38,841 nucleotides of DNA from a virus (lineage: Duplodnaviria > Heunggongvirae > Uroviricota > Caudoviricetes), in the IMG/VR virus record IMGVR_UViG_2541047816_000002, one strand, 5' to 3'. Numbering within the stretch: the stretch's first letter is position 1; each line of letters opens with the position of its first letter. Below, piece by piece: positions 4,931-28,072 of this stretch. The translations under genes and the position numbers were made by a program. The notes under the pieces were generated by a model. It was not told the origin of the DNA, ran no database searches, and worked only from the letters and a program-made list of their open reading frames with translations.

Positions 4931-5099
4931 GATGGCAGCCTCCGCGATGAATTTGATTAACTCACCACCGAGGTTTTCCACGACCATAAGGGTGGTGAGA
5001 CGTACAGGGGTGGAAATACCGGTCATCACGGAACCCGGCCAGCCTTGCGGCTGCCCTGCACGCCCCACCATAATGCGAATGTGGCTGTGCTTAACGCAT

Positions 5100-5122
5100 A
5101 AAAAAACCGCCTGAGCGCGGTT
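5100..5122 (-). terminator. Rho-independent terminator for leftward transcription
   Basis: Minus-strand hairpin AACCGC-loop-GCGGTT followed by a T7 run (an A run on the plus strand). Confidence 0.6.
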
Positions 5123-5799
5123 ATGCGCCGTGAATGATTTCGGGTTTCCACGCCCGGCACCCGTTTTATGAGGTGCAGGTGCACTATAATTCCACCCGTT
5201 CTGGTTTTCAATAGCTACATTCAACATTTTCTCTCACCTTTTCAGCGGAGTGAACTTTGTGATGCAGTGCCTGGTGCCTCCAGGTGACGTTAACCAGTTA
5301 ACAATTAACGCCGGATACAGAGAATCCACCCATAACACTGTTTTTGGTTTTAACTGTTCCGCGTGCGCTGAGCCGCATTCACCGCATCACAAAATTCACT
5401 TTAAAAAGGGCGGCAGAGCAGTCACGGAGTAAAACTGATACCGCCAAACGTCACCAGAAAATTGATAACAGAGGGCGTTGCAGCGGGGTTGTCACTTAAG
5501 CGTATGGTCAACCTGACAACCCGGTGTCCTCAACGGGGGAAGGAATAACCCCGCCATACTTACCGCCGCGCCATTTCGCGGATTGCCACAACCGGAAGCG
5601 CACGGTCGACGAAAATTTAACGACAGGCTATCTATGAACCAGCTACCTCGCCGTGCGCTTTCGCGTTATGGTCTGACTTTTCAGGGAAATATCCTTTCAG
5701 TAAACTGTCAGTGCCGGATTCTTATCCGTGTCCGGCGCACGACCACACGCTGTCACGAGAGGTCTCCATTCTCAACCAGTAACCTCAATGGAGGATAAA

Positions 5800-12260: not shown

Positions 12261-12381
12261 ATTTTCAACGCATTTGAAGTTCTGGACGGTGCCGGAATAG
12301 AATCAAAAATACTTAAGTAGCGCGCAGGGATAAGAGGGATGGTCCCTTAAAGGGGAGAGCTAATTATCCGGAAGGATTCTG

Positions 12382-12633
12382 ATGATGAACATCGAAGAAC
12401 TGCGTAAAATTTTTTGTGAAGATGGCCTCTATGCTGTGTGCGTTGAAAATGGAAATATTGTTAGTCATTACCGCATTGTGTGTTTGCAAAAAAATGGGGC
12501 TGCGTTAATTAATTTTGTGGATGCCCGAGTGACGGACGGATTTATCTTGCGCGACGGTGAGTTTGTCACTTCATTACAGGTATTGAAAGAGATCGGAATA
12601 AAAGCTGGCTTTTCTGCTTTTTCAGAAGAATAA
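12382..12633 (+). CDS. Rem-like small prophage protein
   Basis: 83 aa MMNIEELRKIFCEDGLYAV...; resembles recalled Qin-prophage Rem; GGAAGG RBS. Confidence 0.55.
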   Translation: MMNIEELRKIFCEDGLYAVCVENGNIVSHYRIVCLQKNGAALINFVDARVTDGFILRDGEFVTSLQVLKEIGIKAGFSAFSEE

Positions 12634-12699
12634 ACTCATCTACAATCTTGCGCGGGGCTGAACTCCCGCTGAGTAACACCGTGCCACCGGAGAAAACCG

Positions 12700-12978
12700 A
12701 TGGCACGCAACGCAAAATATTACAAACATGATAATTCGACCGTTCTTGCCCACACGCACGAGCGGTATTCTCACGCATTTAAGTCAGACTGGTACCAGCA
12801 TCCCCCATGCACTGAAGAACAGGCCGAATGGCTAATTCATAACTACCGCAGACGCGGATACGAGATTAAGAAAGCCCTCAGCCTCGATTATCGTCACTGG
12901 ATAATCTCCGTCAGGCTTCCTTACTCCGAACGCCCACCGCGTCTGTCCCGCACATTCCAGCAACGCATCTGGAGGTAA
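12700..12978 (+). CDS. Hypothetical protein (92 aa)
   Basis: GGAG RBS; ORF ends 2 nt before next gene. Confidence 0.5.
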   Translation: MARNAKYYKHDNSTVLAHTHERYSHAFKSDWYQHPPCTEEQAEWLIHNYRRRGYEIKKALSLDYRHWIISVRLPYSERPPRLSRTFQQRIWR

Positions 12979-14035: not shown

Positions 14036-14416
14036 ATGACTGAACGCATAGAATTTGTTTTGCCTTACCCGCCAACGGTGAACACTTACTGGCGACGCCG
14101 TGGCAGCACATATTTTGTATCAAAAGCCGGGGAGCGTTATCGCCGGGCAGTGGCGCTTATTGTTCGCCAGCAGCGGCTGAAATTAAGCCTGTCCGGAAGG
14201 TTGGCAATAAAAATTATTGCAGAACCACCGGATAAGCGCCGCCGTGACCCGGACAATATTCTGAAAGCGCCGCTGGATGCGCTGACGCATGCGGGGTTGC
14301 TAATGGACGATGAGCAGTTTGATGAAATCAATATCGTTCGTGGTCAGCCAGTATCTGGTGGACGTCTGGGGGTGAAGATTTACCCCATAATGCTTGAAGG
14401 GCAGGTCAAAAAATGA
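14036..14416 (+). CDS. rusA: Holliday junction resolvase RusA
   Basis: 126 aa; ...DPDNILKAPLDALTHAGLLMDDEQ... matches RusA catalytic region (recalled E. coli RusA). Confidence 0.88.
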   Translation: MTERIEFVLPYPPTVNTYWRRRGSTYFVSKAGERYRRAVALIVRQQRLKLSLSGRLAIKIIAEPPDKRRRDPDNILKAPLDALTHAGLLMDDEQFDEINIVRGQPVSGGRLGVKIYPIMLEGQVKK

Positions 14417-15234
14417 AACTGGAAGATTTACCGAAATACTACTCCCCAAAATCCCCCGGCCTGACCGATGCGTCCGCCTCGACATCAAAAGATGCGCTGA
14501 GTATCACTGATGTGATGGCCGCGCAGGGCATGACACAAAATCGGGCTGAGATGGGTTTTTCTGCGTTCCTTGGGAAAATGGGCATTAGTATGAATGACAG
14601 AGAGCGGGCAACAGAATTGCTGACAGAATATGCACTCAGTCGGTGTGATCGCGTGGCGGCGTTAAGAAAACTCCCGGCAGAAATAAAACCGGTAGTGATG
14701 CGCATTATGGCTTCGTACGCTTTTGAGGATTATGCCCGCAGCGCAGCGAGTAAAAAGCAGTGCCCTTGTTGCTATGGGGAAAAATTTATTGAAAGCGTAG
14801 TTTTTACAAACAAGGTCCAGTATCCGGATGGTAAGCCGCCGGTATGGGCAAAGTGTACGAAAGGTGTGTATCCGTCTTACTGGGAAGAATGGAAAAAAGT
14901 CAGGGAGGTGGTAAAAGTTGCCTGTCCGGAGTGTGGCGGAAAGGGTGAGGTTTCCACCGCCTGTAAGGATTGCCGTGGGCGTGGTGTCGCCATTCATCGT
15001 GAAGAGTCGGTAAAACGTGGTATGCCTGTTATCAGAGACTGCCAGCGTTGTGGTGGTCGTGGCTGTGAAAGACTACCATCAACGGAGGCATTTAATGCCA
15101 TACGCAAAGTGACGAGTGCTATCACGCTTGATACGTGGAAAAAATCAGTGAAACGCTTTTACGATACGTTGGTGGTTCGGTTTGACATTGAAGAGGCATG
15201 GGCGGAGCGGCAGTTAAAGAGGGTAACGCGATAG
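14413..15234 (+). CDS. Late antiterminator Q (zinc-finger type)
   Basis: 273 aa; three CxxCxGxG repeats (CPECGGKG, CKDCRGRG, CQRCGGRG); lies immediately upstream of a lambda-like pR'/qut. Confidence 0.7.
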   Translation: MKLEDLPKYYSPKSPGLTDASASTSKDALSITDVMAAQGMTQNRAEMGFSAFLGKMGISMNDRERATELLTEYALSRCDRVAALRKLPAEIKPVVMRIMASYAFEDYARSAASKKQCPCCYGEKFIESVVFTNKVQYPDGKPPVWAKCTKGVYPSYWEEWKKVREVVKVACPECGGKGEVSTACKDCRGRGVAIHREESVKRGMPVIRDCQRCGGRGCERLPSTEAFNAIRKVTSAITLDTWKKSVKRFYDTLVVRFDIEEAWAERQLKRVTR

Positions 15235-15239
15235 TGTTG

Positions 15240-15300
15240 TTGATTTTTCCCGAATCTGTGGTAAATTTGCTCTAACGATGGGCGTTTTATGCCTGACGTT
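15240..15300 (+). promoter_or_regulatory. Late promoter pR' with qut-like element (-35 TTGATT 15240-15245, -10 TAAATT 15262-15267, pause-inducing AACGAT downstream)
   Basis: TAAATTTGCTCTAACGATGGG closely matches recalled lambda pR' TAAATTTGACTCAACGATGGG. Confidence 0.65.
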
Positions 15301-15316
15301 AGAAGATTTTTTACAC

Positions 15317-15338
15317 CCCGCCGCCTGGCGGGTTTTTT
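15317..15338 (+). terminator. tR'-like intrinsic terminator ~45-60 nt downstream of the pR' start
   Basis: cccgcc-gcct-ggcggg hairpin followed by T6. Confidence 0.65.
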
Positions 15339-15460
15339 ATGACTGAAATCGCGTCAGTACAGTAAACGCGCTGGTGGCGGTGAATACCTGTCTTTCAGCT
15401 TGCTGGCTTTTTCGACAAGAGTTATTGGTGTGTCACGTTAACCGGAAAAGGGAAAAAGAC

Positions 15461-15658
15461 ATGCTAAAACAGCAGGATATGACAGAAACCGCCAGAGTAG
15501 TGTTTAATGAATTAAGAGTTACCGAACCGGCGACAGTCGGGGAGATAGCGCAGAATACTTACCTTTCACGCGAACGCTGCCAGTTAATACTGACCCAGCT
15601 GGTTATGGCGGGTCTGGCAGACTATCAGTTCGGTTGTTACAGACGCCTTCCGCAGTGA
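15461..15658 (+). CDS. Hypothetical small protein (65 aa, possibly winged-helix)
   Basis: ATG at 15461 after A/G-rich RBS; stop codon lies inside a terminator hairpin. Confidence 0.45.
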   Translation: MLKQQDMTETARVVFNELRVTEPATVGEIAQNTYLSRERCQLILTQLVMAGLADYQFGCYRRLPQ

Positions 15659-15668
15659 AGGCTTTTTT
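15645..15668 (+). terminator. Rho-independent terminator
   Basis: gccttc-cgcagt-gaaggc hairpin followed by T6. Confidence 0.55.
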
Positions 15669-15808
15669 ATTTGTGGTAAATGGGCGGCTGGTGGGTGTTA
15701 GGGGCACCCACCAGCCATCTGCTCATGCGTTGGGTTCACAAGCAAACCTCAGGCCCACTGCTTTGCGCAAAAGCAGAATGAGCCTATCAGAGACAGGCTT
15801 AATGATCC

Positions 15809-16856
15809 ATGCTTAATACTGTAAAAATATCCAGTTGTGAGTTAATCAACGCCGACTGCCTGGAATTTATCCGGTCGTTACCCGAAAATTCTGTTGACCT
15901 GATAGTCACGGACCCGCCGTACTTTAAAGTGAAGCCTGAGGGCTGGGATAACCAGTGGAAGGGCGACGATGATTACCTGAAGTGGCTGGACCAGTGTCTG
16001 GCGCAGTTCTGGCGGGTGCTGAAACCTGCCGGAAGTCTTTACCTGTTCTGTGGTCATCGCCTGGCATCTGATATCGAAATCATGATGCGTGAACGCTTCA
16101 GTGTGCTGAACCATATTATCTGGGCGAAGCCGTCCGGACGCTGGAACGGATGCAACAAGGAAAGCCTGCGGGCGTATTTCCCCGCCACAGAGCGCATTCT
16201 GTTCGCGGAACATTATCAGGGGCCGTATCGTCCGAAAGATGCCGGGTATGCGGTGAAGGGCAGTGCACTGAAACAGCATGTGATGGCCCCGCTGATTTCT
16301 TACTTTCGTGATGCGCGCGGCCCTGGGGATAACGGCAAAACAGATTGCAGATGCCACAGGAAAGAAAAACATGGTGTCGCACTGGTTCAGTGCCAGTCAG
16401 TGGCAGCTACCGAACGAAAGCGATTATCTGAAATTACAGTCGCTGTTTGCCCGGGTGGCAGAAGAGAAACATCAGCGCGGTGAACTGGAAAAGCCCCACC
16501 ACCAGCTGGTGGATACGTATACGTCACTGAACCGGCAGTATGTGGAGCTGCAGAGTGAATATAAGCATCTGCGGCGGTATTTTGGTGTGACGGCGCAGGT
16601 GCCGTACACGGATGTGTGGACACATAAACCGGTGCAGTTCTATCCCGGGAAACATCCGTGCGAAAAACCGGCAGAAATGCTGCAGCAGATAATCAGCGCA
16701 AGTAGCCGTCCTGGTGATCTGGTTGCGGATTTTTTCATGGGGTCGGGTTCAACGGTAAAAGCGGCGATGGCACTGGGGCGTCGTGCGATTGGTGTTGAGC
16801 TGGAGACCGGACGTTTTGAGCAGACAGTCAGGGAAGTTCAGGATTTAATCGTTTGA
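15809..16856 (+). pseudogene. DNA methyltransferase (beta-class N6A/N4C, DPPY motif), frameshifted
   Basis: Two overlapping ORFs in different frames: 15809-16483 carries motif IV DLIVTDPPYF, 16308-16856 carries motif I FFMGSGST; frame switch near 16300-16330. Confidence 0.6.
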
Positions 16857-16905
16857 AACGGATGAGATTGCAGAATTAATTACGCACCATTATTATTCTG
16901 CTCCC

Positions 16906-25755: not shown

Positions 25756-27255
25756 GTGACGCTCAATACTTCTCAGGTCAGTTACTATATGACTCAGCGT
25801 AAGAAAGGTATAACTCAGCATATCTCGGCCATGAAGGCTGGTATCTCAGTCCGTTCTGGTCGTCGGATCGAAAAAGGAGAGTGGGCAAAAAACAGTGTTC
25901 GGCACTGGCGCACACGCAAAGATCCTCTGGAAGCTGTGTGGGACAGCATGCTTGTTCCTCTGTTGAAAGAGAGGCCGGCTCTGACACCAACAACTCTGCT
26001 GGAGATGCTACAGGATAAATATCCCGGCCAGTACCCCAACAGCCTTCGAAGAACAATGCAACGGCGGGTCTGCGAATGGAAGCTACAGTATGGTGCAGAG
26101 CAGGAGGTCATGTTCCGCCAGCGACATCAGCCCGGTCTGCGAGGTCTGTCGGACTTTACTGAACTGAAAGGTGTAGTTGTCACCATCGCCGGTAAGTTGT
26201 TGGCGCATAAGTTGTATCACTTCCGTCTGGAATGGAGCCACTGGAGCTGGATGCGGGTTGTGCTGGGTGGTGAGAGCTTCTCTGCTCTGGCTGAAGGTCT
26301 GCAGGAAGCCCTCGGACAACTGGGCGGAGTGCCGGTAGAACATAAAACGGACAGCCTGAGGGCAGCATGGAAACAACAGGGCGAAGATGGACGCCGCGAG
26401 CTGACTGAGCGTTATGCTGCTCTCTGTCAGCACTACGGAATGCAGGGCGTACACAATAATGCCGGTCGGGGCCACGAAAATGGCTCGGTTGAAAGTGCCC
26501 ACGGACATCTGAAAAGGCGTATCTGTCAGGCGCTGATACTGCGGGGCAGTAACGACTTCAGCACCATAGAAGAATATCAGGCCTTCATCACTCAGCAGGT
26601 TATGCGGCACAACCGTAACAATCAGGATCTGGTCAAGGAAGAACGTCTTCATCTGAAACCGCTGCCGCTTCGTCGCAGTGCTGACTATGATGAGCTGACT
26701 GTGAGGGTTAGCCGCAGCAGTACCATCAATGTGAAGCACGTCGTCTACAGCGTACCTTCCCGGCTTGTAGGTCAACTGTTACGGGTCCGGTTATGGGACG
26801 ATCGTCTGAGCTGTTACGTTGGCAGCAGCGAGGTCATGAGCTGCCCACGTGTCAGACCAGAAAAAGGGAAGACGCGGGCCCGTCGTATCGACTTCCGACA
26901 TGTGATCGACAGTCTGGCAAAAAAGCCCGGTGCGTTCTGCCATGCAACGCTGAGAAATGACATCCTGCCAGACGATGAATGGCGGAGGCTGTGGCGTCGC
27001 TTATGTAATCATCTGGAACCCGACATGGCAGGCAGGCTGATGGTACATGCTCTGAAACTGGCTGCAGGATACGACGATATCTCAGTCGTGGCAAAAGGTA
27101 TGGAGCAGATGCTGAATACCCCGGGAAACGTGGATCTGCACCGGCTGATGCGCTTCCTGGGTATAAAGGAAAAGGCGTTGCCGGTAGTCAATGTGAAACA
27201 GCATAACCTGAGCAGTTATGAGCAACTACTGCGTGGCAAGGGAGGTTCGCAGTGA
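25756..27255 (+). CDS. istA: IS21-family transposase IstA
   Basis: 499 aa; GTG start with AGGA RBS; overlaps istB by 4 nt. Confidence 0.85.
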   Translation: MTLNTSQVSYYMTQRKKGITQHISAMKAGISVRSGRRIEKGEWAKNSVRHWRTRKDPLEAVWDSMLVPLLKERPALTPTTLLEMLQDKYPGQYPNSLRRTMQRRVCEWKLQYGAEQEVMFRQRHQPGLRGLSDFTELKGVVVTIAGKLLAHKLYHFRLEWSHWSWMRVVLGGESFSALAEGLQEALGQLGGVPVEHKTDSLRAAWKQQGEDGRRELTERYAALCQHYGMQGVHNNAGRGHENGSVESAHGHLKRRICQALILRGSNDFSTIEEYQAFITQQVMRHNRNNQDLVKEERLHLKPLPLRRSADYDELTVRVSRSSTINVKHVVYSVPSRLVGQLLRVRLWDDRLSCYVGSSEVMSCPRVRPEKGKTRARRIDFRHVIDSLAKKPGAFCHATLRNDILPDDEWRRLWRRLCNHLEPDMAGRLMVHALKLAAGYDDISVVAKGMEQMLNTPGNVDLHRLMRFLGIKEKALPVVNVKQHNLSSYEQLLRGKGGSQ

Positions 27256-28007
27256 GCAATATCCATCACCTTGAACGCAGCCTGCGTAAACTACGCCTGA
27301 CACGAGTTGGAGCTGAATGGCACGCTCTGGAAAAACGAGCACTGGCAGAAGGCTGGACACCATCGCGCTATCTTCTGACGCTATGCAATGAAGAACTCCT
27401 GTGGCGCGAGAGTGAAAAACTGCGTCGTTATAAAAAGGAGGCCCGGTTGCCAGTTGCCAAAACGCTAAGCGAATACGACTTCAGTCAGGTGCCGGAACTG
27501 AATGGAGCTCAGTTCCGGCAACTCTGTGAAACGACAGACTGGGTTGATGCAGGAGAAAACGTTCTGCTGTTCGGAGCCAGCGGGTTGGGGAAAAGCCATC
27601 TGGCGGCAGCGATCGTGGATGGCGTAGTAGGCCAGGGCTACCGGGCCCGGTTCTACAGCGCAGGAGAGTTGTTGCAGGAACTACGTAAAGCCAGAGCGCA
27701 GTTGAAACTGAATGAGCTGCTACTGAAACTGGATCGCTACCGGGTGATAGTGGTGGATGATCTTGGCTATGTCAAACGCGACAGCGCCGAAACGGGAGTA
27801 CTGTTCGAGTTAATAGCGCATCGCTATGAACGTGGGAGCCTGGTGATAACCAGTAACCATCCGTTCAGCATGTGGGGCAGCATCTTCGTGGATGAGACTA
27901 TGGCGGTGGCGGCGGCAGACCGGCTGATCCATCACGGATATATGTTCGAACTGAAAGGTGAAAGCTACAGGAAAAAGACAGCGAAGGCAGTAACAAGCGC
28001 GACTTGA
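27252..28007 (+). CDS. istB: IS21-family helper ATPase IstB
   Basis: 251 aa; Walker A GASGLGKSHLAAA, Walker B VIVVDDLGY. Confidence 0.9.
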   Translation: MSNIHHLERSLRKLRLTRVGAEWHALEKRALAEGWTPSRYLLTLCNEELLWRESEKLRRYKKEARLPVAKTLSEYDFSQVPELNGAQFRQLCETTDWVDAGENVLLFGASGLGKSHLAAAIVDGVVGQGYRARFYSAGELLQELRKARAQLKLNELLLKLDRYRVIVVDDLGYVKRDSAETGVLFELIAHRYERGSLVITSNHPFSMWGSIFVDETMAVAAADRLIHHGYMFELKGESYRKKTAKAVTSAT

Positions 28008-28072
28008 TGTCGCACTGAAGGGTGCGGCCAGTATAGTTGGCGCGAGTCGGCAAAACTAGTTGACGTCTAATA

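Follow-up and report, generated by a model that had tools for sequence, protein, structure and literature searches.

The adenine methyltransferase M.EcoGII is sold commercially as EcoGII methyltransferase. Together with M.EcoGI it was described from prophages of Escherichia coli O104:H4 C227-11; both enzymes have 349 aa, are identical to each other at 333 of the 349 positions, and methylate adenine in any sequence context, and both are unexpressed in the lysogen and harmful when expressed constitutively (Murray et al. 2018, PMC5778455). Phage 1720a-02 carries a close homolog of M.EcoGII (PMC5778455), and a study of STEC methylomes lists M.EcoGI/GII homologs, to which none of the motifs methylated in the lysogen could be ascribed (PMC6602927). 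According to a published domain map of M.EcoGII based on AlphaFold2 (PMC11551740), residues 1-134 and 260-349 make up the Rossmann domain, residues 160-237 form a TRD of four helices, and a charged linker is also present. In our search of the PDB, no structure of the M.EcoGI/GII family was found, the matches being distant beta-class enzymes (best E = 9e-26) over the catalytic and AdoMet-binding regions only. Frameshifts in simple repeats inside methyltransferase genes are a feature of phasevarions (Mod of Neisseria, Haemophilus, and Helicobacter), where the repeat tracts are long and can either gain or lose units, from strain to strain as well as within a strain.

Here, we analyze a member of this methyltransferase family that is split between two reading frames, in a 38,841-nt stretch of viral DNA (IMG/VR record IMGVR_UViG_2541047816_000002; hereafter, the window), which begins with an integrase gene. 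The evidence presented below makes it very probable that the gene carries a genuine inactivating -2 frameshift and is a recently formed late-region orphan methyltransferase pseudogene of the M.EcoGI/M.EcoGII type, residing in a lambdoid prophage next to ompW.

Two halves of one methyltransferase gene

The first-pass annotation of the window had assigned motif IV and motif I of a DNA methyltransferase to two overlapping ORFs in different frames, located between the Q gene and a tRNA cluster. Both the motif assignment and the location are borne out (Table 1): the frame of ORF2 is shifted by +1 with respect to that of ORF1, and both frames are open over positions 16296-16480, an overlap of approximately 185 nt. 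Compared with the Pfam profile PF01555 (N6_N4_Mtase, beta-class N6/N4 amino DNA methyltransferases; length 221, gathering score 26.7), ORF1 matches profile positions 1-105 (E = 3.2e-17, 63.7 bits) and ORF2 positions 110-219 (E = 1.4e-25, 91 bits), so that jointly they span positions 1-219. The DPPY motif precedes FMGSGST, in the order DPPY, TRD, FxGxG that is characteristic of beta-class enzymes and is shared with M.EcoGI and M.EcoGII. ORF1 and ORF2 are thus the two halves of a single beta-class methyltransferase gene of the PF01555 family. E. coli AR_0017 and CFSAN067215 contain the identical sequence, in which PGAP annotates a pseudogene, 'DNA-methyltransferase, frameshifted', the ends of which coincide with those given for the whole gene in Table 1.

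Table 1. Coordinates of the methyltransferase locus and of other prophage features in the window
Feature	Position	Strand	Remarks
C4 antisense RNA	4988-5075	-	early-region regulatory RNA cluster, 4988-5459
isrK	5100-5176	-	same cluster
DicF	5408-5459	-	same cluster
Q-type antitermination protein	14413..15234	+	PF03589, E = 8.5e-51; upstream of methyltransferase
Terminator-like hairpin	15317-15332	+	just after Q, tR'-like position; between Q and methyltransferase
Terminator-like hairpin	15645-15662	+	after small 65-aa ORF; between Q and methyltransferase
Putative methyltransferase pseudogene	15809..16856	+	1048 nt; 1050 nt / 349 codons with 2-bp deletion repaired
ORF1	15809..16483	+	224 aa; coding part 15809-16480
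Motif IV, DPPY (within TDPPYF)	15911-15922	+	in ORF1
ORF2	16308..16856	+	182 aa
Lesion site, run GCGCGCG	16313-16319	+	one GC unit lost relative to GCGCGCGCG in homologs with an uninterrupted run (D-A-R-A-A)
Motif I, FMGSGST	16734-16754	+	in ORF2
tRNA cluster, three genes	16906..17155	+	CAT anticodon, Arg-TCG, Arg-TCT; directly downstream of methyltransferase
STnc100 sRNA family (RF02076), two copies	17232-17422, 17700-17909	+	136 and 161 bits
617-aa NanS-p-like protein	18132-19985		DUF1737 + SASA sialate O-acetylesterase domain + DUF6645; after tRNA/sRNA spacer
terL, lambda-type large terminase gene	24009..25667		interrupted by IS21-family element
IS21-family element	25663-28072		2410 bp; istA 25756..27255, istB 27252..28007; IstB PF01695, E = 1e-61

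The first 169 residues of ORF1 are authentic and comprise the N-terminal half of the Rossmann domain with DPPY, the linker, and the start of the TRD, of which nine residues are retained; the remaining 55 residues are out of frame. ORF2 encodes what is left of the TRD, together with the C-terminal, AdoMet-binding half of the Rossmann domain. Direct reading of the sequence reveals no Shine-Dalgarno element before either of the ORF2 starts, GTG 16308 or ATG 16311 (…GATTTCTTACTTTC); the sole SD-like element in ORF2 is a weak AGGA located 9 nt 5' of an internal in-frame ATG at 16371.

Relationship to M.EcoGI and M.EcoGII

With the missing 2 bp restored (see below), the gene encodes a protein of 349 aa, the length of M.EcoGI and M.EcoGII, which is identical at 346 of the 349 positions to WP_000935536.1, a methyltransferase that a prophage of E. 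coli O104:H4 FDAARGOS_349 encodes amid the same neighboring genes; the three substitutions relative to the O104:H4 copy are A74V, V149A, and M321L. This identity places the gene, as far as sequence can tell, in the M.EcoGI/M.EcoGII family of beta-class N6-adenine methyltransferases, and at 99% identity the intact form would be expected to methylate adenine non-specifically. The neighborhood is also that of the family, with a Q-type antiterminator, a small ORF, the methyltransferase, and tRNA-Ile/Arg/Arg in the late region of a lambdoid prophage, with the lysis and head genes further downstream. Given that Q lies upstream, the methyltransferase gene is assigned to the late transcription unit. 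Thus, the initial proposal that an intact enzyme would be an orphan methyltransferase of the late region is upheld and can be sharpened to a non-specific adenine methyltransferase of the M.EcoGI/M.EcoGII type (PMC5778455). The window copy differs from M.EcoGI and M.EcoGII in that a 2-bp deletion interrupts its reading frame after codon 169, and we therefore file it as a family pseudogene rather than as a functional member.

Among phages, the best match is the 'DNA methylase' gene of phage 1720a-02 (94.6% nucleotide identity); the corresponding genes of many Stx2-converting phages are similarly close (94-95%), and that of phiP27 is 85% identical. Altogether, the genes of the Stx2-converting phages, 1720a-02, and phiP27 share 83-95% nucleotide identity with the window gene over its whole length and, flanked by Q on one side and by the tRNA genes on the other, take the same position, upstream of stx, but are intact single ORFs (1059 nt). 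The tRNA order matches that of Stx2_EH2201, and the position of the cluster is as in Stx phages. Unlike the latter, the window prophage lacks stx and instead carries two STnc100-family sRNA copies in the spacer.

The lesion

The frame switch had been predicted near positions 16300-16330, and a comparison with homologs had been proposed as the means of locating the indel. Alignment of the region 16200-16420 with Stx2a phage Stx2_EH2201, phage 1720a-02, and E. coli MB06102 bears out the predicted position: the three homologs and the window differ in length at a single place, an alternating GC run at 16313-16319. The homologs read GAT GCG CG(C/T) GC(G/T) GCC, coding for D-A-R-A-A (in MB06102, GATGCGCGCGCGGCC), whereas the window reads GATGCGCGCGGCC, so that GAT-GCGCGCGCG-GCC has become GAT-GCGCGCG-GCC by a 2-bp deletion. 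Re-insertion of GC yields an ORF of 1050 nt (349 aa) free of other stop codons. Therefore, the 2-bp deletion is the only inactivating lesion of the gene, and it is evolutionarily recent.

MB06102, which is in frame across the GC run, was rejected as an 'intact' comparator because it has a nonsense codon of its own at position 11 (GAG to TAG; L004:4110-4145), on account of which PGAP calls a later start; the proper intact references are the O104:H4 copy (L007) and the Stx phages.

Recurrence in independently sequenced genomes

When complete E. coli genomes were searched with a 1201-nt query over the gene, seven matches at 100% identity and one at 99.8% were of the same length, and the next-best matches were 2 nt longer. 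The eight carriers, AR_0017, CFSAN067215 (O18:H1), CU37RT-2 (O16:H6), GN02050, GN06667, GN05476, B2.3, and SCU-125, come from unrelated projects, and the PGAP label is 'frameshifted' wherever checked. The window, which matches seven of the carrier genomes at 99.7-99.9%, represents a ninth and separate copy, since its terL contains an additional IS21-family element of 2410 bp and its sequence near hok/sok has been replaced by a segment of 495 bp. In addition, the exact 224-aa product of ORF1 is encoded on at least 17 contigs in NCBI, ENA, and Logan, alongside several more near-identical 224-aa variants. In CFSAN067215, the allele is embedded in a different downstream mosaic, with identity to the window stopping at position 18289, so the allele has persisted through mosaic recombination.

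These data bear directly on the possibility, raised in the first-pass annotation, that the frameshift is a sequencing or assembly error and that the true genome has (GC)4 and one continuous ORF. Indels are the commonest assembly error, and the copy in O157:H7 genome H219, which is 1 nt shorter than its near-identical neighbors, could be such a case. Nevertheless, the lesion in the window is a clean loss of a dinucleotide in a GC run rather than a homopolymer miscount, and the identical 2-bp-shorter allele recurs in the eight complete genomes, in the window, and on the at least 17 contigs. Assembly error is therefore effectively excluded and retains a vanishingly small probability, and of the alternatives initially considered it is the genuine inactivating frameshift that agrees with the allele's presence in eight independently sequenced genomes and with its annotation by PGAP.

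Under WP_050575812.1 / MDU3191857.1, the exact ORF1 product is listed as 'site-specific DNA-methyltransferase [Veillonella parvula]', most likely owing to E. coli contamination of a Veillonella assembly.

State of the gene across the family

An evenly spaced sample of 60 records was drawn from the 1,980 matching E. coli records, a survey that detects changes in length only and misses nonsense mutations; by this measure, 55 of the 60 have the intact-type length. The five exceptions are the window's allele, the aforementioned O157:H7 genome H219 (3-5-1), a 5'-truncated plasmid copy, and two remnants. In IMG/VR, each of the 80 best loci matches along practically the full length of the protein, although the loci were ranked by full-length protein match and the sample is thus biased towards intact genes; for this reason, we dropped them as a measure of the frequency of pseudogenization and used the evenly spaced E. 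coli sample instead. Between intact copies and the repaired gene, the median dN/dS is 0.09. Collectively, the lengths of the E. coli copies, the full-length IMG/VR matches, and the low dN/dS argue that a single ORF under purifying selection is the normal state of the family. Apart from the nonsense codon of MB06102, we found a GAA to TAA change at codon 219 in IMGVR_UViG_2703718871_000006 (L087:1501-2157). The pattern is one in which selection keeps the gene in active phages, with sporadic decay by assorted lesions in resident prophages.

Probable slippage without phase variation

Three exact probes of 77, 79, and 81 nt, which differ only in repeat number and contain (GC)3, (GC)4, and (GC)5, respectively, were compared with 5,426 complete E. 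coli genomes. The (GC)3 probe gave 8 exact full-length matches, the (GC)4 probe matched 770 records at ≥99% identity, and the (GC)5 probe had no exact full-length match in these genomes. The rows following the 8 exact matches of the (GC)3 probe are (GC)4 copies at 97.5%, so there is no (GC)3 copy with one nearby SNP. All (GC)3 copies share one gene haplotype (≥99.8% identity), which indicates that they stem from a single event. Across all fetched loci, the 12-nt stretch containing the run reads GCGCGCGCGGCC (33 loci), GCGCGCGCTGCC (19), GCGCGTGCTGCC (19), GCGCGAGCTGCC (4), or, in a few cases, something else. As the stretch varies by synonymous changes, with GCGCGCGCT, GCGCGTGCT, GCGCGAGCT, and GCATGCGCG all common, the repeat structure of the run is not preserved among them.

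The first-pass annotation had also considered a slippage-prone site. This idea survives insofar as precisely one unit of a (GC)4 run has been lost, and alternating GC runs of the NarI type are known from the work of the Fuchs laboratory as hot spots of -2 frameshifts in E. coli; the notion of a hypermutable switch does not survive. Were the run a contingency locus that reversibly silences a toxic non-specific methyltransferase, an OFF state could be advantageous, given that constitutive expression of M.EcoGII harms the cell (PMC5778455), and unit number would be expected to vary both ways and to be maintained by selection. However, the run has only four units, the probes reveal one rare allele shorter by a unit and none longer by a unit, the short allele is confined to one haplotype, the run drifts by synonymous substitution, and the other dead copies were inactivated in unrelated ways, by truncation or by nonsense mutation of codon 11 or codon 219. 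Unlike the tracts of phasevarions, the run is thus short, variable in one direction, and unconserved. The three-probe counts and the run variants in the fetched loci lead us to reject phase variation, which we consider very unlikely, and the deletion is best read as one slippage event at a short dinucleotide run.

Consequences for the enzyme

Residue 169, the last before the change of frame, falls in the first TRD helix on the published domain map of M.EcoGII, and the break separates the catalytic DPPY half of the Rossmann fold from the AdoMet-binding FxGxG half. With the break inside the TRD and the two motifs separated, the enzyme is almost certainly dead, and on anatomical grounds neither fragment alone can be a methyltransferase. 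The AGGA before ATG 16371 could allow some synthesis of a C-terminal fragment, and a low residual activity, arising from the two fragments or through occasional slippage during translation or transcription, retains a slight probability.

An active enzyme might still be produced from the two frames, either if ribosomes shift by +1 within 16296-16480 or if N- and C-terminal fragments, translated separately, join up as the partners of natural two-subunit methyltransferases do. The overlap of the frames and the weak SD-like AGGA before the in-frame ATG would be compatible with such a scheme, and fragment complementation is known for some C5-methyltransferases, namely M.AquI and M.EcoHK31I. Yet nearly all homologs are single ORFs and the arrangement is unconserved, we recognize no slippery or stimulatory motif, and with a shift at the ORF1 stop, approximately 55 residues within the TRD would be wrong; the break runs through the Rossmann fold as well as through the four-helix TRD, and the start of ORF2 lacks an SD sequence. 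The conserved two-frame arrangement and slippery site that characterize programmed frameshifting across homologs are not found for this gene. The single-ORF state of the homologs and the position of the break in the domain map led us to discard a programmed frameshift or a naturally split enzyme, and we regard activity from the two frames as highly improbable. Equally little credence is due to the idea that the GC run acts as a low-frequency, reversible prophage switch for a toxic methyltransferase or that the fragments reassemble into a weakly active enzyme.

Origin and significance of the frameshifted allele

The genuine inactivating frameshift can be accommodated in a simple scenario. One GC unit of the (GC)4 run would have been lost, most likely by replication slippage, shifting the frame after codon 169, within the first TRD helix; the DPPY and FxGxG halves would thereby have come to lie on separate reading frames, the second without a good translation start, and, judging from the anatomy, no active enzyme is expected. 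The deletion arose once, on one haplotype, and a few E. coli lineages have since acquired it by inheritance and recombination. Intact copies are probably silent in lysogens and become active only once the prophage is induced, when the enzyme presumably provides progeny DNA with blanket adenine methylation against restriction, as suggested previously (PMC5778455). Thus, the host would pay no price for losing the gene, and the prophage only a small one. As even intact copies are silent in normal growth (PMC5778455; PMC6602927), the methylome of a lysogen is uninformative about this gene.

The enzyme family has already been characterized, and the frameshift is annotated in RefSeq for identical sequences, so that with the lesion already flagged the finding itself matters little. 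What is gained is the exact position of the indel, a single GC unit at 16313-16319, and a marker for one prophage lineage, whose integration site is next to ompW; in AR_0017, the prophage is seen to adjoin this gene. The allele also indicates that the non-specific methyltransferase is dispensable for maintenance of the prophage in the lysogen, and in predictions of the methylome or of restriction evasion for this strain, the gene should be scored as inactive.

Other features of the prophage

Terminator-like hairpins are over-represented in the region 15150-18200, where 14 were found against 3.7 +/- 2.1 expected. The first tRNA of the cluster (16906-16981) is called Met (CAT) by ARAGORN and tRNA-Ile by PGAP on the identical AR_0017 gene; the latter call corresponds to an ileZ-type tRNA with a CAT anticodon presumed to be lysidine-modified. 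The two STnc100 copies lie where Stx phages carry stx, with the tRNA cluster before them and the nanS-like esterase gene after them, and belong to a duplication of approximately 470-485 nt, each copy being closed by a terminator-like hairpin; in MB06102, the spacer at this position is only approximately 490 bp. CFSAN067215 encodes a longer, divergent version of the 617-aa NanS-p-like protein, with a recombination breakpoint near 18289.

The IS21-family element in terL is absent from the seven closest genomes, and its flanks overlap by 6 bp relative to AR_0017, corresponding to a target duplication. With terL interrupted by this element, the prophage copy in the window has probably lost the ability to package DNA. 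Finally, just downstream of a hok/sok module (sok RF01794, 11840-12015), a segment of 495 bp at 12261-12755 stands in place of 123 bp in the AR_0017 prophage, which is otherwise 99.8-99.9% identical.
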